Below are positions 1 through 57,916 of a DNA stretch of 64,000 nt, piece by piece (positions within the stretch are counted from its first letter, which is position 1; the number at the start of each line of letters is the position of its first letter). Below the pieces are notes generated by a model. That model did no database searches and was not told the DNA's origin. It saw only the letters and a program-made list of their open reading frames with translations. This DNA is from an uncultured Chloroflexia bacterium. Lineage in GTDB: Bacteria > Chloroflexota > Dehalococcoidia > DSTF01 > JALHUB01. The stretch covers positions 857,451-921,450 of the forward strand of contig OY970386.1 in the NCBI GenBank assembly GCA_963719465.1. Direction: 5' to 3'. The position numbers and the translations under genes are program-made.

Positions 1-1092
1 CTCAGTGGCGGCGTCGGCCGCTGATTACGTTACATTGTCGGGTTCCAACACCCACATCATTACCGTTCCATCCGGCATGGGAGATGCGATGTTCACTGTT
101 TACTGGCTCGCATCTGCTGACCAGCAAACAGACTTGGGAGTTACGGTTCGAACGTCCGGACGGCACGCTGGTGAGTCCGGGAGACCCAGAATCTGCTCGA
201 CGAAGGTGCGGTGACAGACGACGGTGTGTTTGACGTGTTGTTCAAGGGGTTCGCGATGACCGCTCCCGTCGCGGGCGACTGGCAAGTTAGCGTGCAGGGC
301 AACTCGGTGCCAGATGAGGGGCAGCCATATCTCGTCACTCTATCCCCGTTGGACAGCCAGGTCGCTCTAGGGGCAGACGTATCGGAACCACTTGTCCCCG
401 AAGGCCAGCCGGAGGTGATCACCGCCGCGCTTCTGGATAACCAAGAGCCCACCGAGCCCAGCGAAATCTCGGGTCAGATTATCACGTCAGATGGGAACCA
501 AGTGCCGGTCATCCTGCACGATGATGGAAGCGGCGGAGATGAGGTGGCGGGAGACGGCACCTACTCCGGTACGTTCTCGTCCACACAGCAGTGCGGAGAG
601 TACGGGGTAACAGTCACCGCCAGTGGCATGACTTCCGAAGGGCTTGTCAGCCGTCAGCAAGTGGCGTCATTTGAGGTTCAGGTTCCGGGCGACGCGATTA
701 GAGATCCATGCAATGCGGATGACGACGAGGACGGGATAACCGACGCTGACGAGCTGAATGTCGTCGGCACTGACCCACTAGAAGCTGACACTGATGCCGA
801 TGGCATGCCAGACGGCTACGAGCACCTTCATTCGTGTCTGAATCCGCTGGTGAACGATGCCGGAACCGACCCCGACCACGACGGCGTGACGAGCCTCCAA
901 GAGTACACTGCCGGGACTGATCCCTGCAGCGCTGCGCCGTCAGTCGGCGGCATAGCGGAGGCGCCGGATGTGGCTGAGAGCGCGCCTGAAGGATCTTCAT
1001 CCTTCCCCTACGGCATCGCGGGGGCGTCGGCAGGGCTGATCCTGGCGTTCGCGGCCGGCGGCTGGTATGCGATGAGGCGACGGCGGGGTTAG
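1..1092 (+). pseudogene. Secreted Ca-binding-repeat surface protein. The 5' end lies outside the window and the frame is broken twice. The intact C-terminal part is ORF 211..1092
   Basis: ORF 5..214 reads ...MFTVYWLASADQQTDLGVTV and then turns Arg-rich. Removing one base in GAACGTC (150-156) gives RRPDGTLVSPGDP. A second 1-nt shift near 186-190 joins NLLDEGAVTDDGVFDV of ORF 211..1092. Asp-rich DxDxDG repeats (DTDADGMPDG, DPDHDGV). C-terminal VGGIAEAPD, TM helix, RRRRG. Confidence 0.55.
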
Positions 1093-1093
1093 G

Positions 1094-1393
1094 CTACTCG
1101 CCGGGGCTGTTGCGGCGGTAGGAGAGGGCGGCGGAGGGACAGCGGTCGACCTGGGCGATGATGGCATCGGTCGGCGCGCCGAAGGGGTTGACCCAGGGAC
1201 GCTTCAGGGGGTCGAAGACCTGCGGCAGGTCAACGAAGCAGCAGGTGGCGTGGATGCAGAGGTCCGGCTTCCAGATAATCGTTATTTCGCCGTTGCTGTA
1301 CTCGCGGACGGTCTCGCTATAGCGGGGCTCGCGCTTCTCTTCCTCGGTAGGCATCTCGATTCCAGTGTAGGGGGCAGCAGCGCCGCGCGTCAA
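1094..1393 (-). CDS. Small Fe-S protein, YjdI-like divergent 4Fe-4S mono-cluster family
   Basis: 99-aa ORF with the Cys pattern CIHATCCF...DRCPSAALSY. The start may be the internal ATG (MPTEEEK). Confidence 0.6.
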   Translation of the reverse strand: MTRGAAAPYTGIEMPTEEEKREPRYSETVREYSNGEITIIWKPDLCIHATCCFVDLPQVFDPLKRPWVNPFGAPTDAIIAQVDRCPSAALSYRRNSPGE

Positions 1394-2415
1394 TTGGCGA
1401 GCGGCTGGACGGTGACGTCGATGACGCCGGCGGAGAGAGGCGCAAGCTGGGCGAAGGCGGCGCGGGAGAGGTCGACGGCGTTGCCGAAGCCGCCACGGTC
1501 GCAGATGCGGACGCGGATGCAGCGGGCGTCGTGGCAGACGAGAAGCAGGGTGCCGAGCGGCCAGTCGTTGGCGGCAGTGATGGTCGGATCATCGGGGTTG
1601 AAGGAGTCGCCGTCCGCCATGGTGTCGTCGGGGCCGTAGCCGTCGGGGCCGCCGTACCAGGTGGCGATGCCGCTGATGGCGCCGTCGGAGGAAGCGGGCG
1701 GGTCGACGACGACGGGGGCGGGCGCGGGAGCCGGCGGGGGCGCGGGCGTGGGCGCAGCGGTGGCAGTCGGAACAGGCGTCGGAACCGGCGTCGGGCGGGC
1801 GATCTCGGCGGCAAGGACTTCGACGATGGCGACGGTGCGCGTCTGGGAGGCGTAAGCCGCGGCTTTCGATACTATCGCGTGGCCGTCGATAGGAACGGGC
1901 GTCGTCGCGGTCGAGAGGGCGCCACAGGAGAAGACGGCGGCAAGAACGGCGAGCAGGCAAGCGCCTACGGGCACGCTCCACGAGGGCAAGCGCCAGGCGG
2001 GCAGGCTACAGTCAGGCGTATGCCAGACGGGCAGGACGCGTCGAAGCAGGGAGCGACGTTTCGGACGCAAGCGCGATTCGGCGGACGGGCTGACCGGCGC
2101 CGCTTCCGACACCAGGTCGAAGGTGCCGCAGGCGGGCGACTTCGCGGCGGTCGACAGTGCGTCGAGGCAAAGGACGGCGGCGAGGGCGGCAAGCAGGTAG
2201 ATTGCAAGAAGAAGCAGGGAAGGGCGTTTCGGGCGTAAGTGGGATTCGGCGGAAGAGGGGCTGGCCGGCGCCGCTCTGGGTGTGGCGACCGGCTGGTGGA
2301 CCTCGCTCGTGGTGGCGTAGGGAGCGGGCCGTGCTGGTTGGGCGGAGGCGTCCTTTCCGTGGAGAACCGTATCTCTACGCTGCTTCGCGCCTCCCGATCC
2401 CGGCGAAGCACTCAC
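1390..2415 (-). CDS. RlpA-like double-psi beta-barrel (DPBB) domain protein with PT-rich linker
   Basis: The C-terminus GIATWYGG...DGDSFNPDD...CDRGGF...VDLS fits the RlpA/DPBB fold. The N-terminal half holds two diverged copies of an AES(H/R)LRPKR + TM segment. Start uncertain. Confidence 0.65.
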   Translation of the reverse strand: MSASPGSGGAKQRRDTVLHGKDASAQPARPAPYATTSEVHQPVATPRAAPASPSSAESHLRPKRPSLLLLAIYLLAALAAVLCLDALSTAAKSPACGTFDLVSEAAPVSPSAESRLRPKRRSLLRRVLPVWHTPDCSLPAWRLPSWSVPVGACLLAVLAAVFSCGALSTATTPVPIDGHAIVSKAAAYASQTRTVAIVEVLAAEIARPTPVPTPVPTATAAPTPAPPPAPAPAPVVVDPPASSDGAISGIATWYGGPDGYGPDDTMADGDSFNPDDPTITAANDWPLGTLLLVCHDARCIRVRICDRGGFGNAVDLSRAAFAQLAPLSAGVIDVTVQPLAN

Positions 2416-2610
2416 AAGCGGGCATTATCCAGGAGCGGGGGTCGGCGGAGGAATCAGGAAATCACCAACTTACGCCCGAAGAATCCCCTACCGGCGGCCG
2501 GCGCAGATTCGGGGGAGGCAGGGCGACGGCGTCGAATGCCACGGCGCGAGGACGGTTGACGGGCGGCAGCGGCGGCGGTACATTGGCGTTGACAACCACA
2601 TAGGGGGCCG

Positions 2611-2722
2611 ACAGGGGGTCTCGCCTGAGGCGAGGCATGTCGGGGGAAGCCGGTGAGAGTCCGGCGCTGTCGCGCAACTGTAAGTCGGCGCTGACCGACG
2701 AGCCAGGATACCCGCCCCTGTT
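2611..2722 (+). promoter_or_regulatory. Cobalamin (B12) riboswitch aptamer
   Basis: GGGGGAAGCCGGTGAGAGTCCGGCGCTGTCGCGCAACTGTAAG...GAGCCAGGATACCCGCC matches the conserved cobalamin-riboswitch core, including a B12-box-like GCAACTG. Closing helix is ACAGGGG (2611-2617) with CCCCTGT (2716-2722). Confidence 0.8.
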
Positions 2723-2784
2723 CGATCCGAGTACCTTCGCTTGAAAGGGGGACGGATATCATGGGTGCTCCGACGTAGCGCGGT

Positions 2785-2810
2785 CCCGGTCGCCAGGCCG
2801 GGCGTTTTTG
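2785..2810 (+). terminator. Intrinsic terminator, probable riboswitch expression platform
   Basis: CCCGG (2785-2789) / CCGGG (2798-2802) hairpin followed by TTTTT. It sits between the aptamer and the RBS AAAAGGAG plus GTG at 2850. Confidence 0.55.
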
Positions 2811-2849
2811 TGTCTTCCACAATCCAGGACGTAGCGAAAAGGAGTTCTT

Positions 2850-4067
2850 GTGTCTCGTCGAATCGTGGCTTTATTGCTGGCGCTTGGCTGCGTGCTCGCG
2901 GGGACGGCGTCGTCGCTGGCGGCGTCGCCACAGCGGGACGCGGCGCAGCAGGCGCTGGATTATATTCGGACGCTGCAGAACGCGGACGGCGGCTTTCCGG
3001 CCAACGGGAGCGACTCATCGGCGGGCGGGACGCTGGACGCGATGCTGGCGTTCTCGGCGGCGGGCGTCGACGCGGGCGGGGTGAAGAAAGACGGCAAGTC
3101 GCCGCTGGACTACGTGGCGACGCAGGCGGACGCGTATGCGGCGTCGGCGGGCCCCGCGGCGAAGCTGGTGATCGTGCTGAAGGCGGCATCTCAAGACCCA
3201 CACGACTTCGCCGGGGAGGACTTCGTCGCGAAGATGGAATCGTTCTACGAAGGGTCGACGCACGTCTACGGGTCGGAGGTCATCGAACAGGCGCTGTATC
3301 TGCTGGCACGGAAGAGCCTGGGGCTGTCGGCGCCGTCGGGAGCGGTGGACGTGCTGAAGTCGAAGCAGAGGGCAGGCGGTTGCTGGGAGTTCGAGGACGG
3401 CTCCGGCTGCGATACGAACAGCACGGCGATGGCGGTTCAGGCGCTGGTGGCGTCGGGCGTGTCGAAGTCGGACGCGACGGTGCAGGCGGCGATGGCGTAC
3501 TTCCACGCGTCGCAGAACGCGGACGGCGGCTTCCCGTACGTGTCGCCCGACGATTCGGACGCGGATTCGACGGCGTTCGTGCTACAGGCGCTGGTGGCGG
3601 CGGGCGAGGACGTCGACGCGGGCGGGCCGTGGGACAAGGGCGGTATCGCCCCCATGCAGGCGCTACTCAACTTCCGGGACACGTCGTCGAGGGCGTTCAC
3701 GTACGGCGGGCAGGACAACGCCTACGCGTCGTACCAGGCGGTGCCGGCGCTGATGCTGCAGCCGTTGCTATTGCCGCCGAAGGCGACGGCGACGGCGCGT
3801 CCAACACACACGCCGGTTGCGACGAAGACGCCGGTAGCGACGTTGACACCCGTTCCCGCCACAGCTGCGCCGTCGCCGGGGCCGACGCCGATTTCGGTGG
3901 TCCTGCCGGCGACGGTGGCGCCAACGACAATCGCTTCAGATGCGCCGATCAGGCTGGCGTCGGCGGGCGAAGGCCCGAGAAGCGAAACGTCGTCAGAGGC
4001 GATACTTCTGCTGATCGGCGCGGCGTGCGTGGGATTCGGCGCGTCGATTCGCGCGCGGAGGCGGTAG
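2850..4067 (+). CDS. Extracytoplasmic alpha/alpha-toroid (prenyltransferase/terpene-cyclase-like repeat) protein, C-terminally anchored. Candidate corrinoid binder
   Basis: Signal peptide MSRRIVALLLALGCVLAG. Repeated QNADGGFP motifs and a PT-rich linker. Terminal TM ILLLIGAACVGFGA plus RARRR. First gene after the B12 riboswitch. Confidence 0.7.
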   Translation: MSRRIVALLLALGCVLAGTASSLAASPQRDAAQQALDYIRTLQNADGGFPANGSDSSAGGTLDAMLAFSAAGVDAGGVKKDGKSPLDYVATQADAYAASAGPAAKLVIVLKAASQDPHDFAGEDFVAKMESFYEGSTHVYGSEVIEQALYLLARKSLGLSAPSGAVDVLKSKQRAGGCWEFEDGSGCDTNSTAMAVQALVASGVSKSDATVQAAMAYFHASQNADGGFPYVSPDDSDADSTAFVLQALVAAGEDVDAGGPWDKGGIAPMQALLNFRDTSSRAFTYGGQDNAYASYQAVPALMLQPLLLPPKATATARPTHTPVATKTPVATLTPVPATAAPSPGPTPISVVLPATVAPTTIASDAPIRLASAGEGPRSETSSEAILLLIGAACVGFGASIRARRR

Positions 4068-5204
4068 GTGGCGCAAGGCGAGGCGGCATCGGGCAGGGCG
4101 CGGGGCGTCGCGAGGGCCCGGACGGGCAAGCAGTCGAGGGCGAGGGCGGCGTCGCTGCAGGCGGAGGCGTGGTCGGCGTGGCTGCTCGCGGCGTCGATAA
4201 GCGTCTTTCTCACGTCGAATCCGCTCTACCTGGCGACAGCCTGTCTCGTCGGGCTCGTGGTCTACGCGTCGATGCCCGCGCGACGGCAGCGGGGCGCGTA
4301 CGGCTTCATCCTGAAGATAGGACTTCTCTTCGCGCTGCTGAGCGTGCCGTTCAACGTGCTGACGGGCAGCAGCGGGTCGACAACGCTGGTGGAGCTGCCG
4401 CGGCTGACGTTCCCAGGCTGGCTGGGCGGCGTGACCTTCGGCGGGAACGCGACGCTGGAGTCGCTGCTCTACGCGTCGAGCCGGGCGCTGCGACTGATGG
4501 CGCTGCTGCTGTTCGCGACGGCGTTCAACGTCGGCGTGGACCACTACCGGCTGCTGCGATTGACGCCGCGGGCGCTGCGGCAGCTGGGCGTCGTCGTGAC
4601 GGTGGCGGTACTGCTGCTGCCACAGTCGTTCGCGCAGGGACGGGCGGTATCTCAAGCGCAGCGACTGCGCGGGCGGCGACTGCGGGGCGTGCGAAACGTG
4701 GGCGCTTTCGTCGTGCCGGTGCTGGCCGGCGCGCTGGAGCGGTCGATCCAACGGGCGGAATCGCTGGACGCGCGTGGGTTTGGGGGCGGGCGGTTTGAGA
4801 TGGGACACGGGACGCGCCTCTTCTCTATCGCATCCATCGGGCTGCTGGCGGCGGGGGCTTCGGCATATGCATACGACAGGAGTTGGGCGCTGCCAGCATT
4901 CGCCACTGTGGCGGCGAGCGCGGTGCTTGCTCTGCTGGCGCTGAAGGCGCGGGGCCGCGGCTTCGAGGCGACCCGCTACTCGCAGGAGCGGCTGGAGGCG
5001 ACGTCGCTGCTGGTGGTGGGTTGCGCCGCGGCATCGCTGTTGCTGCTGGCGGCGATGCGCGTGGTCGGAGGCGGCGGCATCGACTATTACCCGTACCCGG
5101 CGGCGTCGATGCCACAGTACAGCCCGCTAGTCGCGACGACGCTGCTGCTTCTGCTGGCGCCGGCCTTCTTCGTCGGGCAGACGGCGGAGGGACGCGATGA
5201 TTGA
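4068..5204 (+). CDS. ECF transporter transmembrane T component (EcfT/CbiQ family)
   Basis: Polytopic membrane ORF that abuts the previous stop and overlaps the ATPase start (ATGA at 5197). Arg-rich cytoplasmic loop (QRLRGRRLRG). Start codon uncertain. Confidence 0.7.
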   Translation: MAQGEAASGRARGVARARTGKQSRARAASLQAEAWSAWLLAASISVFLTSNPLYLATACLVGLVVYASMPARRQRGAYGFILKIGLLFALLSVPFNVLTGSSGSTTLVELPRLTFPGWLGGVTFGGNATLESLLYASSRALRLMALLLFATAFNVGVDHYRLLRLTPRALRQLGVVVTVAVLLLPQSFAQGRAVSQAQRLRGRRLRGVRNVGAFVVPVLAGALERSIQRAESLDARGFGGGRFEMGHGTRLFSIASIGLLAAGASAYAYDRSWALPAFATVAASAVLALLALKARGRGFEATRYSQERLEATSLLVVGCAAASLLLLAAMRVVGGGGIDYYPYPAASMPQYSPLVATTLLLLLAPAFFVGQTAEGRDD

Positions 5205-6784
5205 GATAAGCGGTCTCTCTTTCGCCTACCCGCAGGCGTCGAGACCGGTGCTGCGCGACGTATCGCTGTCGATTGCGGACGGCGAGGCGGTGCTGGTGGT
5301 GGGACCGTCGGGCGGCGGGAAGTCGACGTTCCTGCGCTGTTTGAACGGTCTTGTGCCGCACTTCCACGGCGGTCGCTTCGCCGGACGGGTCGTCGTCGAC
5401 GGGCTGGACACGCTGTCGCGGCAGCCGCGCGACCTGGCTGGGAACGTCGGGATGGTGTTCCAGGACCCGGAGAGCCAGTTCGTGGCAGACGTGGTCGAAG
5501 ACGAGCTGGCGTTCGGGATGGAGAACCTGGGCGTGCCGTGGCTGACGATGCGGAAGCGGGTGGAGGAGACGCTGGACGTGCTGGGAATCGCGCACCTGCG
5601 GCGGCGACGGCTGGAGACGCTCTCCGGCGGCGAGCTGCAGCGGGTGGCGATAGGCGCGGTGCTGACGATGCAGCCTCGGACGCTGGTGCTGGACGAGCCG
5701 ACGTCGCAGCTGGACCCGCAGGCGGCGGAGGAGGTGCTGACGACGGTGCAGCGGCTGAACAGCGACCTGGGGATAACGGTGGTGATTGCGGAGCATAGGC
5801 TGGAACGCGTGGCGCAGTACGTCGACCGGGTGCTGTACGTCGCGGGCGACGGCTCTGTGGCATCGTATCCGGCGCGGGAGGCGATGGGCCTGCTGCCGCT
5901 GGCGCCGCCGGTGGCGCGACTCGGCAAAGCGCTGGGCTGGCAGCCGCTGCCGCTTTCGGTGCGAGAAGGGAAGCGCTTTGTCAGAGAGTCGCGACCCGGC
6001 GGCGCGCTATCAGAGCCGGTTGTGTCGCTGAACGGGAGTGGCCTGCGGGTCGACGGGTTGTGGGCGTCGTACGGGGACGGCGATGCGCTGACGGACGTGT
6101 CGCTTGAGGCGGCGGCGGGCGAGATCGTAGCGCTGATGGGGCGGAACGGCGCCGGCAAGACGACGCTGCTGCGATCGCTCGTCGGGCTGATGCCGGCACG
6201 GAAGGGGCAGCTCGATGTGCTGGGGCGCGACGTCGCAAAGAGCAGCACGGAGGAGCTGTGCCGCGAGGTGGCTTTCGTGCCGCAGGACCCGGCGTCGGTG
6301 CTGTTCCGGGACAGCGTCGAAGCGGAGGTGGTGGACACGTTGCGCGGGACCGGCCGGCAGGGGAGCGTGGACGAGGCGCTGGCGGAGTGGCGCCTGGAAG
6401 GGCTGCGTCAGACGCATCCGCGGGACCTGAGCGCGGGAGAGCGGCAGAGAGCAGCGCTGGCGGCGATGCTGGCGGGCAAGCCATCCGCTATCTTGTTGGA
6501 CGAGCCGACGCGCGGGATGGACTACGAGACGAAGGAGCTGCTGGTCGCGAACCTGCGGCGTCGCTGCCGGGAGGGATGCGCCGTGCTCCTGGCGAGCCAC
6601 GACGTTCGAGCTGGTGGCGCAGTGCGCGCAGCGGGTGGTGCTGCTGGCGGAGGGTCGCGTGGTGGCGAGCGGGGGCGTGCGGGACGTGCTGACGGAGTCG
6701 GTGACGTTCAGTACGCAGGTGAACAGGCTGTTCGGCGGAAGGTATCTGACGGTTGAGGACGTGATCGGCGAGGAACGGCAATGA
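5197..6784 (+). pseudogene. Fused double ECF/ABC ATPase (EcfA-EcfA'), apparent 1-nt insertion at 6601-6607
   Basis: Two Walker A (GPSGGGKST, GRNGAGKTT), two LSGGE/LSAGE signatures and two Walker B. After ...LLASHDV the listed frame turns Gly/Arg-rich, while the +1 frame reads ELVAQCAQRVVLLAEGRVVASGGVRDVL...GEERQ and stops at 6782-6784, overlapping the next ATG. Confidence 0.85.
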
Positions 6785-8398: not shown

Positions 8399-10039
8399 GC
8401 GGGCGGCGGGAAGGTCATGCTCTCGGCGAAGGCCTGTCGAAAGTCCTCGCGGCCGACGAGCTCGACGTGGCGGGTGCGTCGAGCAAGGCGTACAGCCTCT
8501 CTCATTCGATCCGGGTAGACGAGCGCGAGCTTGGCACCGAGGCCGGCGGTGTTGCCGACGGCGTGAATGCGGCCGCGCACGCCTTCGGGCACGAGGCCGA
8601 GGGTCAGGAGGCTTTCGGCGCGGAGGGAGCTTCCAAAGCCGCCGGCGACGAAGACGGCGTCGATTGCCTCGGCCTCGATTCGCTGCTCTCGCAGAAGCAG
8701 GTCGATTGTGGCGCGAACGGCGGCCTTGGCGAGCTGCACTTCGCGGATGTCCTGCTGAGAGATCGCGATGTCGCCGTCGCCTTCGACGAGGAGGAAGCGA
8801 CGATCGCCGGCGTCGTCGCGGAGACGGCGTCGCAGGTCAGCGGGCGCATTCGCCGGCGCTTTCGTGGGCGCGACGAAGCGGCCGGAGGGCAGGACGAGGC
8901 CGCTTCGAATCAGCAGGGCGACGGCGTCGATGAGGCCGCTGCCGCAGAGGCCGGCGGGCGCGGCACCGTCGATGGTCTCGAGCTGGAGGCGGCCGTCTTC
9001 TTCGTCGACACGCTCGATGGCGCCGGGCAGGGCGGGCATGCCGGCGGAGATGTGGACGGCTTCGAAGGCGGGGCCGGCGGCACAGGAGGCGGCCGCGAGG
9101 ATCCGGCTCGACGCGAGGACGACTTCGCCGTTCGTCCCGAGATCGATAAAGAGCGAGAGGCCGGGGCGTCGAGCGAGGTCGAGGCCGAGGACGCCAGCGA
9201 CGATGTCGGAGCCGACGTGGCCGCCGATACCAGGCAGCATCTGAATCTCGCAGGCGGCGAAACGCTTGAAGCCGATGTCGCGGGCAGGGAACGGCGGAAG
9301 CTGTCTGAAGACGGGCTCGTAGGGGGCAACGCCGAGCGGCCAGGGGTCGACGCCGCGAAGGAGGTGCATCATGGTCATGTTGCCAGCGGCGGTTACGAGC
9401 GAGACGGCGTCGGGAGTGATGCCGGCGGCGCGGCAGAGGGCGGCGAAGCTTCTCTCCAGATGAGAGACGAGAACGTCGCTGGAGCTCCCGCAGCTCGGCG
9501 GGGCCGCGATGGGCGTAGGCGATGCGGGAGACAACGTCGGGGCCGAAGGCGGCCTGCGGGTTGGCGAAGGAGTCGACGCCGAGCTGAAGCGCTTTCGACA
9601 GGTCCATCAGATAGCAGACGACGGTTGTGGTGCCGACGTCGACGGCGATGCCAAAGCCCTCCCGCCTTCGCTCTTCGCGGCGAGCGGTGGGAGCCCTGGC
9701 CTCCGTCAAGATGCGGATGCGACCGCGACGGGCACGGGCGACGCGCTGGGGGATGGCGACGCGGCAGTCGGCGGCAAGGAAGGTCAGGCAGGCGAGACGC
9801 CAGCCGTCGGTAAGCTCGGCTTCGGGGAGAAGGGCGGCGTCTTCAACCGTCGGCGAGGGCGCGCCTTCGAGGAAGCGGACCTTGCATTCGCCGCAGGTGC
9901 CACGGCCGCCGCACTCGGAATCGATGGCGATGCCGGCGGAGCGCAGGGCGTTGAGCAGGGAAGTGCCGACGGCGACCTGGATGTCGAGGTCGACGCCTTC
10001 TACGGCGACGCGAACGAGCGGCCTTGATTCGTCAGGCAT
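8395..10039 (-). pseudogene. RACo-type corrinoid reductive activase (2Fe-2S ferredoxin + ASKHA/DUF4445), apparent 1-nt insertion near 9471-9477
   Basis: N-terminus is CGGRGTCGECKV ferredoxin, then GIAVDVGTTTVV. The frame is lost after ...GPAELRELQ. The other frame continues DVLVSHLERSFAALCRAAGI...DLGTNGEVV...LCGSGLIDA to 8395. ATG 10039 overlaps the corrinoid-protein stop (ATGCCTGA). Confidence 0.8.
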
Positions 10040-17237: not shown

Positions 17238-19027
17238 CTCGACGAACTTGGTGACCTGGGCGGGATCGCTGGTGACGAGGCACTGGTAGCCGGCCTGGTC
17301 GAGGGAATGCTGGAGGTAGCGCAGGATCGGCAGCTCGTCGTCGACGGCGAGGACGCGGGGTCTTTCGCCTCGACGGACGCCGGCGGGCGCGGAAACGGGC
17401 GTCGCCGCCGGGCGAGCCGGGCTCTCAGCGGCAAGGGGCAGGGTGAAGGAGAAGACGGAACCCTTGCCTTCGCCTTCGCTTTCGGCCCAATCCGGCCGCC
17501 GTGGGCTTCGACGATGCCCTTGCTGATGGCGAGGCCGAGGCCGGTGCCGACACGGAAGGCGGGGCCATCGTGGACCTGGGAGAATTTCTGGAAGAGAAAC
17601 GGCAGTTTCGCGGGGACGATTCCCTGGCCGCGGTCCCGGACGCGAACGGTGGCGTGAACGGGATCGTGCTCGACGGCGATTGTTATGGGCAAGTCCGGCG
17701 AGGCGAACTTGGCGGCGTTGTTGAGCAAATTGCTCAGGACCTGAACGAGTCGGCGCTTGTCGGCGTTGACGGGGGGCAAGTCTTCTGGCATTTCGACGTT
17801 GACAGGGTGGGGGCGGCCGGCGCGAGCGAGCGTTGCTTTCGCCTCGTCGATGGCGTCGGCGAGGTTGATGGGCTCGGGCTTGACGGAGAGGGAGCCGGCC
17901 TCGATGCGGCTCATGTCGAGGAGGTTGTCGGCGAGGTCACGCAGGCGGTCGGACTGCTCGTCGATGATCTGGAAGAGTTCGCGGCCTTCCTCCAGGTCGA
18001 GCGGGCGGGGGCTGTGGAGGGCGGTGGCGGCGGAGCCCTTGATAGCGGCAAGCGGCGTCTTCAGCTCGTGGGTGACCATGGCAAGGAACTCGTTGCGGAG
18101 GCGCTCCATGTCCTCCATGGCGCGAACGCGCTCGGTCACGTCCCGGACGATGCCCTGGATGGCGACGGGCTTGTCGTCCACCAGGATGGGAGCGTTGTGG
18201 TGCTCGATCCAGAGGGAGCGGCCGTCCTTGTGCTGGCAGCGGAGGATGATCGGGCCGGTGAACGTTGTAGGCTCGGTGTGCATCTTGTCTATTAGCGGCT
18301 GGTCATCGGGGTGGACGATTTTGTGGTCGAGGTCGGGGTCGGCGAGCCACTCTTCGCGCTCGTAGCCAAATAGATCGGTCATGGCGGGACTGACGTACTC
18401 GTAGCCGGGCGGGTCGAGGCGAAAGCGGTAGATGCCGTCGGTTGCGTATTCGGCGAGGAGGCCGTAGCGCTCCTCGCTTTCGCGGAGGGCCTGCTCGGCG
18501 GATTGCTGGGCGCGACGGCGTTCAGTAGTCTCGTCGATCTGGACCACGTAGCCCTTTACACCGCCGTCGTTCTTGGAACCGAGGGGTGTGACGACCACGT
18601 TCAGGTAGATGGACCCTGAGCGCGAGGTGGGGTAGAGGTTAGCCGCTTTGATCTTCTCGAAGTCGAACTCGATTTCGCCGCGGACGGTGTCGCCGCGACG
18701 GAGGGCGGCTTTCGCCTTGTCGGAAAGGCCTGGGTGGTCGGCGATGCTGAGGCCTCGGAGGTCGTCGACGCTGTTGACGCCGGCGGTTTCGAGGAAGGCC
18801 TGGTTGGCGTCGATGAGGCGGCCGACGGCGTCGTAGATCTCGATGGCGACGGGCGAGCCGGTGAAGAGGGACTGGAAGAGGCGACCGGTCATTTCGGCGT
18901 CGTAGACAGGGGTTACGGGCGCGGGCGGCTCTTTGGAAGGCGCTGTCGTTTGTTTTTCGCGGGTCATGTGCGTGCTTTTGGTCATTCCTTCACGTTCAGG
19001 GCTGCAAAGACCTTGACAACCTACCAT
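16677..19027 (-). pseudogene. PAS-PAS sensor histidine kinase that continues in frame, after a 1-nt correction at about 17489-17491, into an OmpR-type response regulator
   Basis: H-box MVTHELKTPL, N/G boxes, ...GTGLGLAISKGIVEAHGGRI, then the frame is lost. The -1 frame gives WAESEGEGKGSVFSFTLPL + linker + RVLAVDDE...LLDLRLPG...KPF + wHTH ...IGYRMVKE, with no stop or canonical start between. Confidence 0.75.
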
Positions 19028-26614: not shown

Positions 26615-26616
26615 CG

Positions 26617-33191: not shown

Positions 33192-35333
33192 CTATTTCGC
33201 CCGCCAGCGCCTCCTGGCGTAGAAAGCGCCAGACGTTAGCAGCAGCACAGCGACCGCAGCAATTCCCCCAAGAGCGAACGGCGCCGTCGACGGAGAGCCG
33301 GCTGTCTGCTGGAGCGACGCGTCCGGCGCGTCGGCCAAGCCACCGACGGCAGGGAAGGGCGTGCGCGTGGGGGTAGGGCCGGTCGTGGGCGTTGGGGTGG
33401 GCGTCGATACGCTGGTGCAGCCGGCAGCGACAGCGGCGTTATAGGCGTCGATGAGCCCGTAGCCGAAGGTGTTGTTGGGGATAGGCGACCCCAGCGCGAC
33501 GGCGCTGCTGAGTATGTAGTTGCGCAAGTCTGTGCGGGCCGTCGAGGCCGGGACGGAGCCACCCGATTTCAGGTCCGGACGGCACTGGAGGAGAAGCGCG
33601 GCGACGGCGGCAACGTGCGGGGCGGCAGCGGAAGTGCCGCCGAACTGCTTTCCGGTCACCTGGCAGCTTCCGTAACCGAAGCCGCCGGCGCCCGACACGC
33701 AGACGTTGTCGATGCCGGTGATGTCTGGTTTGATGCGGCCGTCGTTCGTTGTGCCGCGGCCGCTATATGGCTCGATCGTGTCGTGCCCCGGATTCGCCTG
33801 GTCGATGGCACCGACGGAGACGACACCGTTGCCGGCGTCGGACTGGTTGGGAACGCTGCTCGATAGCGTGTTGAAATTGAGAAGGGCATCATTTGGGAAG
33901 AGAGTCGCTCCGCTGAGGGGGACGAGGAACAGGTCAAGGGTGCGCAACGCGGCCCCCGAGTGCTTCTGGACCGCGATGGCATAGTCATGCACGGCCCCCG
34001 TCGTGTTGTGCCAGTACAGACTTTCCACGGGGTTGCCGCTGCCGTTCTGAACGTTCGTGCTGGACTGCAATAGTGTCCCGTTCTGGTCGTCATAGAGGTA
34101 CAGGTCGTAGTCATTGCCCGAGTGCCCCCAGGAGTCGTTCCACTGGAGGAACACGTATGCATCACCGTCCGTCTGGAGTTCGAACTCGTCCACGGGGAAA
34201 GGTCCCCTGCCCAGGGCGTCGGTGGTGTTGGCCGTGGCCTGGAACTTGTTCCACCCGGAGTAGGTACCGCCATAATCTGTGAATTGCTCCTGGTAGTGCG
34301 CCCAAGCGTCGTTTCCCACGGCCGTTGTATAGAACCGGATAGGGTTGCCCGCCAGGTTGAGCTGGGTTGACGTATTGCTCGAGACGGCGCTGGTGCCGTC
34401 GTAAGGGCCGGCGTTGAAGAAGCTGACGTCATCAACAACCACGTCGGTGTGAGCGGCAAGGCAGGTCACGGCGTTAGGGAAGTCGAGGGATGTCGCGGAG
34501 GCGGCGAAGTATAGCTGGGCGCCGGGGGCGATATCGTGGACAATCTCAAGCATGGCGGTCCCCTCGCCTTTTCCCAAGGTGGTCGGGTTGCCACCCAGGA
34601 CGTTGCAGGTGGAGGTGTCGACGGAGCCGAGGTCGCCGGTTGCCTGGGAGGCGGCGAGCCCGAGGACGCCGTCGGAGATGACGCCGACTTTGACCCCGGC
34701 GCCGCTAACGCCGAAGGTGGAGCGGGCAAGGTTGGCGCGGATGATTGCATCGCCTTCCGTCGTCACGGAGCCGGTCTGGAAGAAGGCGTAGTCGGGGAGG
34801 CGCACCGACTCGACGGTGGTCGAGGCGGCCAGCGTGCTGAGCGCGTTCGGAGACACCCAGCCCTGCACGAGGGTGAGGTCGTTGGATACCCGCTCCACGG
34901 TCAGTCCGGCCGCCTGCAGGGCGTTGAGGAGCGCAGCGTCGGCGGCGGCGACTTTCACGTAGACCTGCACGTCGCCGGCGGCGTTAATGCGCATCGCTTT
35001 GCCCTGGACAAGCGGCTTCAGGTCGTCGGGGAGCTGGTCCGGCAGGTGGATGCCTTTGGGCTGGCCCTGTTGCACGGCAGCGGCTGCGGCGTCGCGCAAT
35101 TCGGCTAGGGGAGACGCGAGCTTGGGGTCCTGGGGGTGCAACGGGACGGCCGGCGAGAAGTTGGAGACCGTCGGTAGAGACGACGCGACCGGTATGCGCG
35201 TGACCAACGGCGCGGGCGTCGGCGGCGGGGCACCGGAGGCGGGCGGACTGCCGGTCCCGACGTAGCCAATAGCAAATACGAAGATCAGCGACAGCGTGAT
35301 GATCAGATATCTCACCAGGGTTCGAGCGTTCAT
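33192..35333 (-). CDS. Secreted subtilisin-like (S8) serine protease with a C-terminal sorting/anchor domain
   Basis: Catalytic triad contexts VGVISDG (Asp), GTAMLEIVHDIAPG (His) and GGTSAAAPHVAAVAALL (Ser). Signal peptide. PT linker, VGGLADAPD, TM, YARRRWRAK. Confidence 0.85.
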   Translation of the reverse strand: MNARTLVRYLIITLSLIFVFAIGYVGTGSPPASGAPPPTPAPLVTRIPVASSLPTVSNFSPAVPLHPQDPKLASPLAELRDAAAAAVQQGQPKGIHLPDQLPDDLKPLVQGKAMRINAAGDVQVYVKVAAADAALLNALQAAGLTVERVSNDLTLVQGWVSPNALSTLAASTTVESVRLPDYAFFQTGSVTTEGDAIIRANLARSTFGVSGAGVKVGVISDGVLGLAASQATGDLGSVDTSTCNVLGGNPTTLGKGEGTAMLEIVHDIAPGAQLYFAASATSLDFPNAVTCLAAHTDVVVDDVSFFNAGPYDGTSAVSSNTSTQLNLAGNPIRFYTTAVGNDAWAHYQEQFTDYGGTYSGWNKFQATANTTDALGRGPFPVDEFELQTDGDAYVFLQWNDSWGHSGNDYDLYLYDDQNGTLLQSSTNVQNGSGNPVESLYWHNTTGAVHDYAIAVQKHSGAALRTLDLFLVPLSGATLFPNDALLNFNTLSSSVPNQSDAGNGVVSVGAIDQANPGHDTIEPYSGRGTTNDGRIKPDITGIDNVCVSGAGGFGYGSCQVTGKQFGGTSAAAPHVAAVAALLLQCRPDLKSGGSVPASTARTDLRNYILSSAVALGSPIPNNTFGYGLIDAYNAAVAAGCTSVSTPTPTPTTGPTPTRTPFPAVGGLADAPDASLQQTAGSPSTAPFALGGIAAVAVLLLTSGAFYARRRWRAK

Positions 35334-39418: not shown

Positions 39419-40400
39419 ATGCTCGAGACGCGCATAACCAAGCTGTTTGGCATCAAGTACCCGATCCTCTGCGGCGGCATGTTCTGGGTGGGCCGGGCGG
39501 AGCTTATCGCGGCGGTGGCGAACGCCGGCGGGCTCGGCTTTCTGACGGCGGCCACGTACCCGACCATCGAGGAGCTCAGGGAAGACGTCCGCAAGGCGAA
39601 GGACCTCACCGACAAGCCTATCGGCCTGAACATCAACCTATTCGCGTCGGCGCGGCCGCAGCCAGTCGAGGAGTGGGTGCGCATCGCTATCGACGAGAAG
39701 ATCCGGGTCGTCGGAGACGTTGGGGCGCAGTCCGCAGGCGATTGTGGCACCGCTGCATGCGGGCGGCGTGAAGGTCATGCACAAGGTGCCGGGGGTGCGC
39801 TACGCGCAGACGGCGGAGCGCCTGGGCGTGGACGCGATCTGCGTTGTCGGGCACGAGGCGGGCGGGCACCCGGGCATGGACGAGGTGACGTCGCTGGTGC
39901 TGGTGCCAGCGGCGGCGGACGCGGTGAAGCTGCCGCTGGTGGCCGGCGGCGGTTTCGCGGACGGTCGCGGGCTGATGGCGGCGCTGGCGCTGGGCGCGGA
40001 CGCGGTGCTGATGGGGACGCGCTTCATGGCGACGAGGGAGTGTCGCGGGCAGGCGGCGTTCAAGGAGTGGATGGTGCATGCGGCGGAGACGGAGACGGTC
40101 TACTGCATGAAGTCGATAATGAACCCGTCGCGGCTGGCGAAGAACTCAGTGGTCGAGAAGGTGGTGGAGCTGGAGAAGAAGGGCGCGACGCTGGAGGAGA
40201 TGTTGCCGCTCATCTCGAATCAAGGGCCGGCTGTGGTGGACACGGGGAACATGGAGGACGGGCTGGTGAGCATGGGCCAGAGCGTGGGGCTGGTGCACGA
40301 CGTGCCGACGTGCAAGGAGCTCATCGACCGGATGGTGGAGGAGGCGCTGTCGGTGCAGGAGCGGCTGAGCGGCCTGGTGGGGACGAAGGCGCCGGCCTAG
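39419..40400 (+). pseudogene. Nitronate monooxygenase (NMO / 2-nitropropane dioxygenase family), apparent 1-nt insertion near 39713
   Basis: ITKLFGIKYPILCGGM...ANAGGLGFL in one frame up to ...KIRVV. The next frame continues (ETL)GRSPQAIVAPLHAGGVKV...GHEAGGH...AGGGFADGRG...GTRF. Confidence 0.8.
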
Positions 40401-45917: not shown

Positions 45918-45918
45918 G

Positions 45919-47221: not shown

Positions 47222-47948
47222 ATGCGCTTGCTGCCGGTATTGATTTGCTTTCTGGCCGTGACGTTCGCGTCCTGTGGCGGAGGCGGGGGCGGCGCGACGG
47301 CAACACCCGGCGCGACCGGCACCGTTTCGCCAGAGGCGCACGAGACGGCGGAAGCGTCTATTCCCGACCCGTTCGCAAGCTTGAGCAGCTATGACTACGA
47401 CATCAAAGTGCTTGCCGACGGACAGCTCCAGGTGGAGATCCAGGGCGCGATCCAGGGATCGGACCGGATTGAGGCGAACTTCATTGTCAGCGGCTCGACC
47501 ACGCCGATCGAATCGGTGATCATCATTGGCAGCCAGGCCTGGGTAAACGACAGCTCCACCGACAATCAGTGGGCTATGACCGACCTCGGGACGGCGGAGA
47601 ACGTTCTGGCGGGGGCGCCTCCGAAGGACGTTCTGGAACCTTTTGCCGGTCGACAAGTTGCTCAGCGGGGCGAGCGATCTGGGTGAGGAGAACGTAAACG
47701 GCGTAGCGTCGCATCATTTCCAGGTCAGCAGCCTGAGCTCAGACGCGCAGAGCACGCTGTCGACGTTCCTTGGGGTGACGGTCACCTCGTCGGGCACGAT
47801 CGACATCTGGCGCGCGGACAACGGGAACTGGCCGGTGAAGGCAAAGATCACGGGGCAGTTCCAGAACGGCGAGTCAACGTCCACGGCTGAGGTCGATTGG
47901 GACGTCACCAATGTCGACAACGCGACGGTGCAGGCGCCGCCGCAATAG
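47222..47948 (+). pseudogene. Lipoprotein, copy 1, apparent 1-nt insertion at 47627-47633
   Basis: Lipobox LAVTFASCGG. The frame is lost after ...PPKDV. The +1 frame reads WNLLPVDKLLSGASDLGEENVNG..., matching copy 2 (KDIWQLLPVDQLVGGANDLGEENVNG). Confidence 0.85.
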
Positions 47949-50409: not shown

Positions 50410-50731
50410 ATGAATCTCCAGGACGTTCCGAGATCTTGTCATTATCATCGCCGGTTGCCTTATGGCGCTGGTGCTGATCGTGACGCTCATCGTCGTGATC
50501 GTCGTCGGCTTCGCGACGCGCGGACTCATCGCCGCCGTCAGAAGCGTTCTGAAGACGCAGGTGTCGCCGACGCTGGACTCGGCAAAGGCGGTGGTCGATG
50601 ACATTCGCGGGACGACGGCTTTCGTCGCCGACACGACGGTCAGTCCTATCGTCCGAATCTGGGGGATCGTGACGGGGGTCCGTCGCGGCGTGATGGCGCT
50701 GGCGGGGCTGGGCCGGAAGAAGGGCAAGTAG
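50410..50731 (+). pseudogene. Small membrane protein (DUF948-like), apparent 1-nt insertion at 50422-50428
   Basis: ATG 50410 has the RBS AAGGAGG. MNLQDV, then the +1 frame gives RDLVIIIAGCLMALVLIVTLIVVIVVGF...LGRKKGK. Followed by a YtxH gene, the usual partner. Confidence 0.7.
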
Positions 50732-52554: not shown

Positions 52555-52572
52555 GGGGTCCTCCCGACCCGC

Positions 52573-52598
52573 GGGAGGTCTAAAGACCTCCCCTACAT
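52573..52598 (+). repeat. REP-like hairpin + CTAC element
   Basis: GGGAGGTCT AAA GACCTCCC CTACAT. Confidence 0.6.
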
Positions 52599-52620
52599 AT
52601 GGTGCTCCCTGCTCTCCAGT

Positions 52621-52708
52621 TGGCGGAGAGGGTGGGATTCGAACCCACGGACCCCGAAAGGTCACACGCTCTCCGGGCGTGCCTGATCGGCCACTCCAGC
52701 ACCTCTCC
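52621..52708 (-). tRNA. tRNA-Ser (type II, long variable arm), anticodon GGA by position, CCA encoded
   Basis: Reverse complement GGAGAGG TG CTG GAGTGGCCGAT CAG G CACGC CCGGAGA GCGTG (variable arm) GTGGG TTCGAAT CCCAC CCTCTCC G CCA. Position 33 reads C instead of U. Confidence 0.8.
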
Positions 52709-52855: not shown

Positions 52856-52945
52856 TGGCGGAGAGGGAGGGATTCGAACCCCCGGTCCCGTTGCCAGGAC
52901 ACCGCTTTTCGAGAGCGGCACCATAAACCACTCGGACACCTCTCC
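52856..52945 (-). tRNA. tRNA-Ser (anticodon CGA), CCA encoded
   Basis: Reverse complement GGAGAGGTGTCCGAGTGG... with anticodon stem CCGCT/AGCGG and loop CTCGAAA. Long variable arm. TTCGAAT T-loop. Confidence 0.85.
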
Positions 52946-53726: not shown

Positions 53727-53788
53727 TTCCTGCTAGTCGGTTTCTATCATTCTATCGGAGCTTTGTCGTTCGCACTAGAGAGGGTCGC

Positions 53789-54583
53789 TCAGTTGACGCG
53801 CAGGCCGCGGACCACGAGGCGGTGGTCGTAGTTGTGGGTGGCGGGGTTGAACGTTCCCTGGCAGGTGACGATGGTTATGATGTCCTGGCCGGTCTTGGCG
53901 ACGTAGGTGCTGAAATCGTCGTCGTCGCCGATCTGCTTGCTCCATTGGACGGAATAGAGGATCGGCGTGCCGTCCGCCAGGTCGACCTCGATGATGTCGC
54001 CGGGGCCGACGAGGTGGAGGTTCCAGAAGACGGCCTCGTAGTTCGGATGGTAGTCGACGTGGCCGGCGAAGACGGCGTTGCCGCCAGAGCCAGGGGAGCC
54101 GCCCATGCCGGGCCAGGCGGTGAAGTCATACCAGACAACGTCGTCTTTGCCGTTGGGGACGCCCATGACGCCGTCGGTACCCATAACGCGGATGTTGACG
54201 GGGGCGTCGACGCCGATGGAGGGGATCTTCATGCGCATGCCGCTGCTGGCGGCCGGTCCCTGGGAGGACGAGCTTCCGCCGGCAGGGCCGGGCGTGGGCG
54301 TGGCTAGGGCGGCGGCCCACTCGGCGATGGCGGCCGGGTCGATCGTCGCCGTGGCGGTGGGCGTGAGCGTTGAGTCGGGAGTGGCGGTGCTGTTGTCCGC
54401 AAGGACGTCGCTGCCGGAGGAGGAGCCGGGGGAAGCGACGGCGACAAGAGCGATGAGGACAGCCACGTAGACAGCGGCGACGCCGCTCACGAGGAAAGCG
54501 CCGCGTGGGTAGCGTCGGTAGAGTCCGACGAACTGGTCGCGGCGCTGCTTGAGCGCGATTATCAGCCTATGCGAACGGCCCAT
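53789..54583 (-). CDS. Sortase-family transpeptidase (class F-like), copy 2
   Basis: N-terminal TM. VFAGHVDYH, ITIVTCQGTF, HRLVVRG. Confidence 0.8.
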   Translation of the reverse strand: MGRSHRLIIALKQRRDQFVGLYRRYPRGAFLVSGVAAVYVAVLIALVAVASPGSSSGSDVLADNSTATPDSTLTPTATATIDPAAIAEWAAALATPTPGPAGGSSSSQGPAASSGMRMKIPSIGVDAPVNIRVMGTDGVMGVPNGKDDVVWYDFTAWPGMGGSPGSGGNAVFAGHVDYHPNYEAVFWNLHLVGPGDIIEVDLADGTPILYSVQWSKQIGDDDDFSTYVAKTGQDIITIVTCQGTFNPATHNYDHRLVVRGLRVN

Positions 54584-55230
54584 ACTATCCGCCTATCATT
54601 ATACTGGCTTGTGGTGGAATTAAAGCTACCAGCGCAGGTTATCAGGGTTAGCGACTCCTGCGGCGTGGAAGCAACGATCTCGTTGAAGGCCGTGGAGGAC
54701 GGATCGACGACGCGGTTGGACTGAGTGGAATAGGTATACTGGCTGCCGTCCTCGAGACGAAGGGTAATCTGGTCACCCTGCTTGAGGTCGTCGAGATTGG
54801 CGAACACGGCCGGGCCATAGTCATGGTAATCGACGTGCCCCGCCAAGACGGTGTTGCCGCCGTCGCCGGGGCTGCCCCCGAAGCCGGGAAGGGCGGAGAA
54901 GTTGTAGTAGACGACTTGCTCGGGGCCATCCGGCGACGGCATGCGGCCGTCGGCGTCCACGGCGCGAGAGACGACGGGCGCGTCAATGCCGATGGCGGGG
55001 ATGACGAGCCGGTCGACGGGATCGGGTGTGGCGGTCGAGGTGGGCGAAGGCACGGGGGAGGAGAAGGCGATGTTGGAGATGCTTTCGTTGCCGGTGGCGG
55101 GATCGTCAACGTGGGCGAGGGCGACGAGCAGGACGAATGCGCCGGCCGCGGCGAGGGCCAGGGCCGAAGCCAGCAGGGGGCTCCAGCGGGGCAGGCGACG
55201 GGGGATTCTGGGACCTCCACCTCCACACAT
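54562..55230 (-). CDS. Sortase-family transpeptidase (class F-like), copy 3
   Basis: N-terminal TM. VLAGHVDYH, LTLITCAGSF, RRIVWAVR. Confidence 0.8.
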   Translation of the reverse strand: MCGGGGPRIPRRLPRWSPLLASALALAAAGAFVLLVALAHVDDPATGNESISNIAFSSPVPSPTSTATPDPVDRLVIPAIGIDAPVVSRAVDADGRMPSPDGPEQVVYYNFSALPGFGGSPGDGGNTVLAGHVDYHDYGPAVFANLDDLKQGDQITLRLEDGSQYTYSTQSNRVVDPSSTAFNEIVASTPQESLTLITCAGSFNSTTSQYNDRRIVWAVRIG

Positions 55231-55239
55231 GTTGCACCT

Positions 55240-55989
55240 CTAGCTTATGCGCACGGCCCAGACGACACGACGCTCGTCGTAGGAACGGCTCGTAGAGTCG
55301 AAGGTGCCGGCGCATGTGATCATGGTGAGCGATTCCTGCGGGGTTGAGGCGACGATCTGGTTCCAGGAGGTCGAGGCGGGGTCGACGACGCGGTTCCACT
55401 GGACGGTGTAATGATAAGAGCTGCCGTCATTGAGTTGAATGATGATCTCGTCGCCTTCGGCAAGCTTTCCAAGGTTCCAGAAGATGGCCGGGCCGTAGTC
55501 ATGGTAGTCGACGTGGCCGGAGAGAACGGTGTTGCCACCGACGCCGGGCCTACCGCCGAGGCCGGGGAAGGCGGAGAAGTCGTACCAGACGACGTCGTTA
55601 GGTCCGTCGGGGTTGGGCATGTCGGTCGAGCCGTTGGCGGCGGGTGTGACGACGCGCTCGGAGAGGACGGCGTCGACGTTGATGGACGGGATTATGAGGT
55701 GGTCGCCGCCACTGCTAGCGCCCGGAACCGGCGCACTCGGGTTGGTGCCGGATACGCCGCTGCTGTTCTGGCGGGCAGTCAGCAGGCTGGGGTCGAGCTG
55801 TTGCGCCTGGTTGATGCCTTCGTCGAGAAGGCCGGCGGAGCTCGCGGTGGGACTGCCGCCTGTCTTGGCGCTACTGCCGCCGCCGCTTCGGGCCACGCCG
55901 ATTGCGACGATGGCGATGACGAGGAGGACGACGACGGGCACGCCGAACAGGAGAAGGCGACGCGGTAAGGCAATTCGGTTCATCTGCAT
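55240..55989 (-). CDS. Sortase-family transpeptidase (class F-like), copy 4
   Basis: N-terminal TM. VLSGHVDYH, LTMITCAGTF, RRVVWAVR. The second ATG (55983) has better RBS spacing. Confidence 0.8.
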   Translation of the reverse strand: MQMNRIALPRRLLLFGVPVVVLLVIAIVAIGVARSGGGSSAKTGGSPTASSAGLLDEGINQAQQLDPSLLTARQNSSGVSGTNPSAPVPGASSGGDHLIIPSINVDAVLSERVVTPAANGSTDMPNPDGPNDVVWYDFSAFPGLGGRPGVGGNTVLSGHVDYHDYGPAIFWNLGKLAEGDEIIIQLNDGSSYHYTVQWNRVVDPASTSWNQIVASTPQESLTMITCAGTFDSTSRSYDERRVVWAVRIS

Positions 55990-56243
55990 ACCTCTTGGAT
56001 GAGAGCTCTATCCTCCGCCACCCTGTCTACCCTTCCTTCAGAGGCGGATGAACAGGTAGGCCCAACGATCCGGCTTGGCGCTCGCCGTCCACTATGGGAA
56101 CGGCGAAGGGCTGATTCAATTTTAGCGCTGGCAGCGCGATGGTCAAGCACGGCGGCGCGTGCTCAGCGGCGCGCACGGCTATGCTGCGTCGCTCAATTGT
56201 GCCAACTTCATTCACCTTTGAACTCATTCTTGCTTGAGAGTCG

Positions 56244-56283
56244 CTGGGGGCCCCGATTGCTCAGGGCCCCCAGGGTTTTTGTT
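56244..56283 (+). terminator. Strong intrinsic-terminator-like hairpin, oriented on the + strand
   Basis: CTGGGGGCCC (10-nt loop) GGGCCCCCAG followed by GGTTTTTGTT. No annotated + strand gene lies upstream. Confidence 0.5.
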
Positions 56284-56304
56284 CACTAAGCTCGCGGTTA
56301 CGAC

Positions 56305-57916
56305 CTACGGGAGGTAGCCGCCGTCACCGGTCTTCGGTGGGGTGACGCCCGCTCCGCTGGGGGCGACAGCGCCTGGCGGGGCGGCAGTCGGAGGCGCCGG
56401 AGCGCAGGAAACGAGGGTGTTGGTCTCGATGTCGGTGGTCGACGTATCGACTCGCGTGACCTTGAGGTCATCGTTCATCGTCAGCGTCTGGTCGAGGACG
56501 GTTGCGATAACCGTCACTCCAGCCGTGACGCCGGACAGAGGCGTGACCGTCGTCTTGGCGACGCCGTTGGCGTCGGTTGTGGCGACGATCGGCTTGGCGG
56601 CGCCCAGCGCGACCACGTCGAATCGCACCTGGTTGCCGACCGGGACGGGCTTGCCGTCGGAGTTCAGCACTGTGGCATCGACTTCAGCGCCCGTGACGCC
56701 GTCGCAGGTGATCTGCGGCGGTGTGGCCACCGTGATGGTGTTCGGGCCGCCGATGACGGTGAGGTCAACCCTGTCATCCGGGCTGAGGACGTTGGTCACG
56801 TTGTCAGAGGTGATATCGGTGAGCGGGGTGGCGACCACGCCCGCGCGAACGGTAGACGTGCCTGCGTCCTGGCCGCAGCCCAGGTTGAAGGCGGCGGTCA
56901 CCTTGCCGCTGGCAAGGCTGACCGAATGCATGAGCTCGAAGTCAGCCTTCACAGGGGTAACGTCCTGTTCACCAAGGTTGGTTGACAGGGCAACCTTGTC
57001 GTCCTTGGTGGAGAACCAACCTACCCAGAGGCCTGTCAGGTCTGTCCCGTCATCGTCAGCGACGGTGGCGAGCAGGCCGGTGACGTTCCGGCAGGCCAAC
57101 TTCGCTGTTGAAGCCGGCGGTGTCGGTGTAGGTGGGCAGCTCGCAGTTGTTGACCGGCGTGTTGAAGTCCGTGTTCTCGCTCTCGATGGTCGTCTTGGGA
57201 ACGGCCTGGAGGGTCACGCTGTCTTGCGCTCCCACGACGGTGTAGTCCAGTGTGGCGTCGACGCCGGACTGGGTGGTGACTGCCTGCGCGTCGCCCCGGT
57301 CCAGGGTGTTGCCTCCCGTGTTGCTCCCCGAGTAGAGGAGGTCAACGACCACGCCGTCGCCCTTGGTGCCGTCTGCGTTGCAGTCTTCGTCGGCGAACGG
57401 GCACTTGTTCTGAGTGGAGGCCAGCGTTGATGTTGCATCGACGGCCGGTGAGGTGGAGAGCCAGTCACCCTGGTCCGCGTCCTCTGTCAGAAGGTCGTCG
57501 TTGGAGACCATCGTGAGGACCCACATGGACTGGCTGTTGAATGCGACGTCGAAGACGGCAGGCGGCGTCGCAATATTTGTGCACGTTGATCCTCCCGGGG
57601 TGATACAAGTGGCGTCGGTAGCGTCCTCGCCCAGCTGGGCTGCGCTGGCGTTGACCAAGTCGGAGTAGGTGTCAACATCGTTAACGTTGCCGCCCAGGTC
57701 ACTAGCCAGCTGTTTCAGCATGGTCGGGCTCTCGAGAGCGTAGCAGGGGGCTATGCTGAAGCCGTGCTGGCCAAGAAGGGTGGCACATACGTCGGGGTTG
57801 AAGGCGATTATGTCCGTTGGTTTGGCTTGCGCCTTGCTCTGGTGGAATGATGCGCCGGCGACGCCGATGACGAGGGCCAGGCTCATCAGACCTGCTAGTA
57901 TTGCAAACTTCTTCAT
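56305..57916 (-). pseudogene. Secreted surface protein with a bacterial Ig-like (Big_1/invasin-like) domain, apparent 1-nt insertion at 57082-57088. Ends PPKTGDGGYLP
   Basis: Signal peptide MKKFAILAGLMSLALV. Paralogue of 58347..60041. Frame lost after ...FNSEVGLP and the other frame continues NVTGLLATVADDDGTD.... Big-like ITCDGVTGAEVDATVLNSDGKPV. Confidence 0.8.

Follow-up and report, generated by a model that had tools for sequence, protein, structure and literature searches.

False frame breaks at GACGTC and GATC sites in the assembled genome of an uncultured Chloroflexota bacterium: a consensus artefact probably linked to DNA methylation

Native bacterial DNA leaves a characteristic error signature in Nanopore R10.4.1 data. 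Ambiguous purine/pyrimidine (R/Y) positions arise in RACG/CGTY contexts, with RA/TY as the minimal motif; these ambiguities vary by read strand, and only part of them pass into the assembly (Lohde et al., 2024, PMC11610573). Inside methylation motifs the error class raised most is G>A, and the excess of errors in native over amplified DNA is near zero outside them (bioRxiv 10.64898/2026.01.14.699587). Errors specific to one strand at GATC are pronounced enough to serve for motif discovery (Liu et al., 2024, PMC11610603), and only a subset of the copies of a methylated motif yields assembly errors (PMC12392509). The subject here is a stretch of 64,000 nucleotides from an uncultured Chloroflexota bacterium (contig OY970386.1, positions 857,451 to 921,450, assembly GCA_963719465.1), referred to below as the window, in which nine genes are interrupted by frame breaks on two palindromes, GACGTC and GATC. 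The extra bases are consensus errors and not mutations: where independent short-read contigs of the same strain cover the 7-mers, they show plain GACGTC. The window very likely belongs to a long-read, most likely Nanopore-only, assembly with methylation-linked miscalls at GACGTC, at GATC and probably at a motif containing TCAACC.

Evidence independent of the assembly comes from searches of public runs, which yielded only contig sets derived from short reads, four in all, and no long-read run with window sequence. X1 and X2 are peat metagenomes and X3 is a freshwater-sediment metagenome of a different study; another peat run of the study behind X1 and X2 contains none of the window sequence. 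The matching contigs come from three samples (X1, X2, X3) in two studies, and most are 100% identical to the window across 150-750 bases. Where they cover an interrupted 7-mer, they omit exactly one base and leave GACGTC (Table 1). Exact-pattern scans for sites 150 and 6601, in either form, found no match in JGI metagenome contigs or GTDB genomes, and look-ups of three proteins of the window in an assembly index were likewise negative. The same contig sets also correct the breaks at 190, 17489 and 39713. Of the two length variants, only the in-frame form is found in the three metagenomes, at low depth, so that rare variants could escape. An earlier note on this DNA had proposed either a consensus insertion at GACGTC in long-read data or a site-specific mutational process, and had looked to accurate independent reads for a decision. 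At all four of the covered sites those reads show the opposite of what confirmation of the extra base would look like; they bear out the consensus insertion and reject the mutational process.

Frame breaks were examined by a codon-usage log-odds scan of the six frames, combined with inspection of every same-strand junction, and the short-read contigs brought three further ones to light (190, 17489 and 39713). The total is nine, fewer than the eleven or so that had been estimated by eye. Seven lie on true GACGTC sites and two on GATC sites (190 and 17489), and none falls within a homopolymer of three or more bases. Six of the seven sit on the 7-mer GACGTTC/GAACGTC at the positions previously given for them (150, 6601, 9471, 47627, 50422 and 57082). 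The coding signal switches frame exactly at each of these 7-mers, and each proves to be a real interruption of a gene, since a single long open reading frame (ORF) results when one base is removed. The six motif-linked breaks therefore all stand, but the link to the motif had been understated at six, since seven of the nine breaks are on true GACGTC sites. The additional one, at 39713, is missed by a 7-mer search because a C>T change at 39721 disguises the GACGTC; the window has GGAGACGTTGG where the X1 and X3 contigs have GAGACGTCGG. When the extra bases are removed every gene is restored, and the nine apparent pseudogenes are intact genes.

The proteins regained support each correction. A JGI homologue (P0001) of the first gene aligns without gaps through FTVYWLAS...GVTVRRPDGTLVSPGDPDLLDEGAV only with one base removed at 150-156 and another at 190; upstream of site 150 the codon statistics are undecided on the frame, which the homologue alignment settled. 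Around 190, AGAATCT in the window stands against AGATCT in the reads, position 190 being omitted by an otherwise identical X2 contig. With one T removed at 6601, the ECF ATPase is gapless against ABC ATPases of the PDB through ...LLASHDVELVAQCAQRVVLL..., and the H-loop region of the corrected ECF/ABC ATPase, SHDVELVAQCAQRVVLL, aligns without gaps to solved ABC ATPases. Fer2, Raco_middle (residues 129-290, a single match) and RACo_C_ter all match contiguously in the corrected RACo protein, and the corrected protein at 39713 matches the NMO family over residues 4-308. No extra base is present at 39713 in a related metagenome-assembled genome (MAG), L001. Correction at 50422 gives an ORF reading MNLQDVRDLVIIIAG..., and correction at 57082 gives a single ORF of 536 amino acids. 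Corrected lipoprotein copy 1 is likewise gapless against the intact paralogue, which contains KDIWQLLPVD, with 91% identity over 241 amino acids. The two lipoprotein paralogues stand in tandem at 47222-48804 (+), each of 241 amino acids and without a Pfam family; it is copy 1 that carries the false frameshift at 47627.

At the 17489 break a base is lost. The window has CAATCC and the reads CAGATCC, an X1 contig inserting a G after 17489; correction restores ...EAHGGRIWAESEGEGKGSVFSFTL..., and a hybrid histidine kinase regains its GGRIWAESEG motif. The corrected frame, at 16677-19123 (-), spans 815 codons from stop to stop and represents a hybrid sensor that the window assembly splits in two. 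Its histidine kinase C-terminal motif precedes C-terminal sequence that resembles a receiver and an OmpR-type winged helix.

Several further candidates proved not to be breaks. One near 51902, beside GAATC, does not hold up: a short-read contig agrees fully with the window there, and the ICMT-family gene is whole. Frame switches of the codon scan near 1360, 12800, 13450, 23400 and 23820 mark normal borders between genes, where a stop codon, a ribosome-binding site and a start codon are present.

Substitutions follow the same motifs. The nine listed substitutions at GACGTC all give AACGTC or GACGTT, that is, G>A or C>T beside A or T, and the one at 27256 is seen against all three runs. Such changes fit the published RACG/CGTY and RA/TY signature (PMC11610573). 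Three further sites read GGTCGA in place of GGTTGA, an A>G change on the TCAACC strand; TGGTTGA[AG]G is common to all three, and positions 2691 and 9400 possibly belong here as well. Between the window and near-identical contigs, 28 discrepant sites are listed, of which 22 lie on motifs: 14 at GACGTC, five at GATC and three at GGTTGA. The listing of substitutions gives a lower bound for 46.5-58.5 kb (at least the number stated), while that of indels is complete; a cluster of differences at 1425-1434 and other contigs with multiple differences were attributed to divergent strains or to chimeric ends of contigs and left out of the counts. Only six listed discrepancies are off-motif (2691, 8021, 9400, 9456, 29821 and 62775), and some of these may be real strain single-nucleotide polymorphisms (SNPs) or generic T>C errors.

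The concentration on GACGTC is pronounced. True GACGTC sites make up ~0.47% of the window yet account for 14 of the 28 read-verified discrepant sites listed. Among the differences listed, ~16 of 51 true GACGTC sites (~30%) are wrong in the window, against five of ~241 GATC sites (~2%). The binomial tail for the GACGTC concentration is ~3e-23, computed for at least 13 of 29 sites and thus slightly more conservative than the final tally; chance cannot account for the pattern. Composition shows the same bias from another side. GACGTC is depleted in the window, with 35 copies observed and 52-74 expected under Markov models, and its one-step error products AACGTC and GACGTT are in excess, with 69 observed and 46-56 expected. 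The 7-mer GACGTTC/GAACGTC occurs 29 times, compared with 13.2 +/- 3.7 in dinucleotide shuffles, none of 100 of which reaches 29. These recounts agree with the figures of the earlier note, which had put the uninterrupted 7-mers at about 23 (29 less six is 23) and the intact GACGTC sites at more than 25 (35). One intergenic copy of the 7-mer, at 13441, is matched by a short-read contig without a gap, so the 7-mer is not always an error.

Table 1. Positions at which the window departs from the short-read or inferred sequence. All positions are those of the window; X1, X2 and X3 denote the short-read contig sets.
Feature	Position	Strand of gene	Gene or site	Window reading	Corrected reading or read evidence
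One-base insertion	150..156	+	Partial secreted-protein gene	GAACGTC	Inferred true site GACGTC
One-base insertion at GATC (AGATCT) site	186..192	+	Same gene as site 150	CAGAATC	Reads CAGATC
One-base insertion	6601..6607	+	Duplicated ECF/ABC ATPase gene, directly after H-loop SHD	GACGTTC	
One-base insertion	9471..9477	-	RACo (corrinoid activase) gene	GAACGTC	X1 contig omits 9472
Lost G of GATC site	17486..17492	-	Hybrid histidine kinase/response regulator	CCCAATC	Reads CCCAGATC
Extra G and C>T change at true GACGTC site	39712..39722	+	Nitronate monooxygenase-family gene	CGGAGACGTTG	Reads CGAGACGTCG
One-base insertion	47627..47633	+	Lipoprotein copy 1	GACGTTC	X1 and X2 contigs omit 47631
One-base insertion	50422..50428	+	Small membrane-protein gene, six codons in	GACGTTC	X1 and X3 contigs omit 50426
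One-base insertion	57082..57088	-	536-amino-acid secreted Ig-like-domain protein	GACGTTC	X1, X2 and X3 contigs omit 57086
Substitution	3844, 33237, 56793		GACGTC (first site 3839..3844)	GACGTT	Short-read contigs GACGTC
Substitution	9533, 14076, 27256, 37218, 47876, 61345		GACGTC	AACGTC	Short-read contigs GACGTC
Substitution	34746, 46410		GATC (first site 34743..34746)	GATT	Short reads GATC
Substitution	62040		GATC	AATC	Short reads GATC
Substitution	5496, 34821, 56493		GGTTGA (first site 5493..5498); TCAACC on other strand	GGTCGA	GGTTGA

The window's errors resemble published R10.4.1 methylation errors in several respects. Both are confined to motifs of restriction-modification type, both consist of R/Y transitions beside A or T with G>A dominant, and both strike only some motif copies; the published errors vanish in accurate or unmethylated data. 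The differences are that half of the window's GACGTC errors are one-base insertions duplicating A or T, that the per-site rate is high (~16/51), that the source is a low-coverage metagenome-assembled genome and not an isolate, and that GACGTC is not named as an error motif in the literature found. Homopolymer-length errors of long reads offer a second parallel, in that single-base indels pseudogenise intact genes and are cured by short-read polishing, but the window's breaks follow a motif and not run length. The artefact is thus of a known kind and unusual only in its motif, GACGTC, its high per-site rate and its insertion form. The two palindromes that collect errors in the window are the recognition sites of AatII-type (GACGTC) and Dam-type (GATC) systems. 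M.AatII is an adenine-N6 methyltransferase. The window holds no methyltransferase or endonuclease gene, and membership in either type of system is not claimed.

GACGTC and GATC are probably methylated in the source organism, and the non-palindromic motif containing TCAACC is probably a third methylation motif. A modified base would distort the pore signal, and the basecaller would then misread the G before the motif's A (or, on the other strand, the C after T). Calling this G as A would produce AACGTC or GACGTT, and calling an additional A or T would produce GAACGTC or GACGTTC; the one-base insertion would be the same ambiguity resolved as an extra base rather than a substitution. Reads of one orientation would be miscalled at each half-site, and with modest coverage and a dominance of reads from the affected strand the error could win the consensus vote and survive long-read polishing. 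Voting by strand dominance would account for the limited share of sites affected and for errors in either half of the palindrome.

Some observations weigh against a methylation-linked consensus error. The contigs cover the window patchily, and the depth per contig is low (~2-5x). Sites 150 and 6601 have no short-read contig coverage. Pfam annotation of ~57 ORFs of the window revealed no DNA methyltransferase or restriction enzyme. Finally, the literature found describes substitutions at methylated motifs and contains no explicit report of +1 insertions.

An artefact might also arise from sequence context alone, if GACGTC and GATC k-mers were hard for the basecaller or polisher irrespective of methylation. 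One preprint does report a G>A/A>G bias that persists in methylation-free amplified DNA (bioRxiv 10.64898/2026.01.14.699587), yet the excess error of native DNA is there concentrated in methylation motifs and near zero elsewhere. Moreover, two classic restriction-modification palindromes together with one asymmetric motif are the typical make-up of a bacterial methylome, and GACGTC has not been reported as a general error hotspot in the literature found. Context without methylation is an unlikely account, and methylation, rather than pure context bias, is probably the cause. The nature of the modification is a separate matter. The GACGTC error rate (~30%, half of it +1 insertions) against ~2% at GATC could reflect a modification other than N6-methyladenine on which basecallers have not been trained, laid down by an uncharacterised AatII-like system; this is unlikely, but if true the pattern of errors would hint at an unusual DNA modification in this uncultured lineage of Chloroflexota.

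The extra bases would be genuine if site-specific +1 mutations and transitions had accumulated at GACGTC and GATC and the short-read contigs represented sister strains. The short-read runs may indeed stem from another sample than the assembly, and their depth per contig is low. Against mutation, three samples yield contigs that agree with the window across hundreds of bases save at motif sites, the base changes reproduce a known instrument signature, and nine genes would have been inactivated within 64 kb, the ECF ATPase, the RACo activase and the histidine kinase among them, with no other decay. Genuine mutation, for instance through error-prone repair at restriction/modification sites or selection destroying restriction sites, is very improbable. 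Programmed recoding, whether by ribosomal +1/-1 frameshifting or by transcriptional slippage at a conserved heptamer, would account for the same heptamer at six breaks, but 23 other copies of the heptamer cause no frame break, and accurate DNA reads without the extra base already refute it. In addition, the motif on the coding strand is GAACGTC in two genes (150, 57082) and GACGTTC in four (6601, 9471, 47627, 50422), so there is no single mRNA signal. The difference in orientation had already been taken to indicate a DNA-level event and not ribosomal recoding, a view upheld here, and the probability left to recoding is next to nil.

The methylation-linked consensus error also agrees with what is known of the nearest genome, Chloroflexia MAG MFD00709.bin.2.102 of the Microflora Danica catalogue, in which the loci are syntenic and the Lon protease is 77% identical. 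The long-read catalogue of that project was built from Nanopore data by Flye assembly and a single Medaka round, with no polishing by short reads, and the project's shallow short-read metagenomes were used for binning only (PMC12313526). The provenance of the nearest MAG fits the window and the short-read runs, without being proof of origin. The best explanation for the window is a long-read assembly, most likely Nanopore only, of an uncultured peat or sediment bacterium of the Chloroflexota.

Several other features of the window deserve mention. Its G+C content is 65%, and its GC skew lies above zero in all 4-kb bins (0.08-0.20), unusually strong and uniform. A cobalamin riboswitch at 2598-2733 (+) heads an operon that encodes a prenyltransferase-like protein, an unknown protein, the duplicated ECF ATPase, a likely T component and an ECF S component. 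Adjoining this operon, genes on the minus strand encode the RACo corrinoid activase and a protein with a B12-binding domain. The whole, spanning 2598-10661, looks like a cluster for corrinoid uptake and corrinoid proteins. At 22603-27516 (-), an encapsulin (Linocin_M18) gene follows a small upstream ORF without a Pfam match, possibly its cargo; beside it lie Ku and a full-length LigD that combines phosphoesterase, ligase and primase-polymerase domains, the two making up a pair for non-homologous end-joining. A PIN-domain gene stands at 38843-39313 (+), and the 4-kb bin with the lowest G+C content of the window (~0.61, 40001-44000) holds a Fic/DOC-family gene at 40608-41774 (-); the region 38843-41774 may be a mobile or toxin-antitoxin island.

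Within 52995-60041 (-), four tandem sortase genes (52995-55989) are accompanied by genes for large secreted proteins at 56305-57916, with the Ig-like domain, and at 58347-60041; Pfam matches of these proteins are absent or weak. A tRNA with a long arm at 52859-52945 (-) attracts reads of unrelated organisms at very high depth in every run, and adjoins a gene for an EVE-domain protein at 52117-52665 (-).

The frame breaks of the window are a sequencing artefact and not a biological mutational process or a genomic feature of the organism. Their biological significance is small because the nine "pseudogenes" are intact genes. A Nanopore-only MAG can nevertheless carry motif-linked false frameshifts and false SNPs, here at about one frame break per 7 kb. 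Such errors raise the number of apparent pseudogenes and break genes apart in annotation; they distort restriction-site counts, and hence analyses of restriction-site avoidance, and they can mimic strain SNPs. The pattern is a quality warning for long-read-only MAGs and at the same time supplies a simple repair rule for assemblies of this kind. For the organism itself, the consensus alone reveals its probable methylation motifs, GACGTC, GATC and one containing TCAACC, an indirect view of the methylome of an uncultured bacterium.

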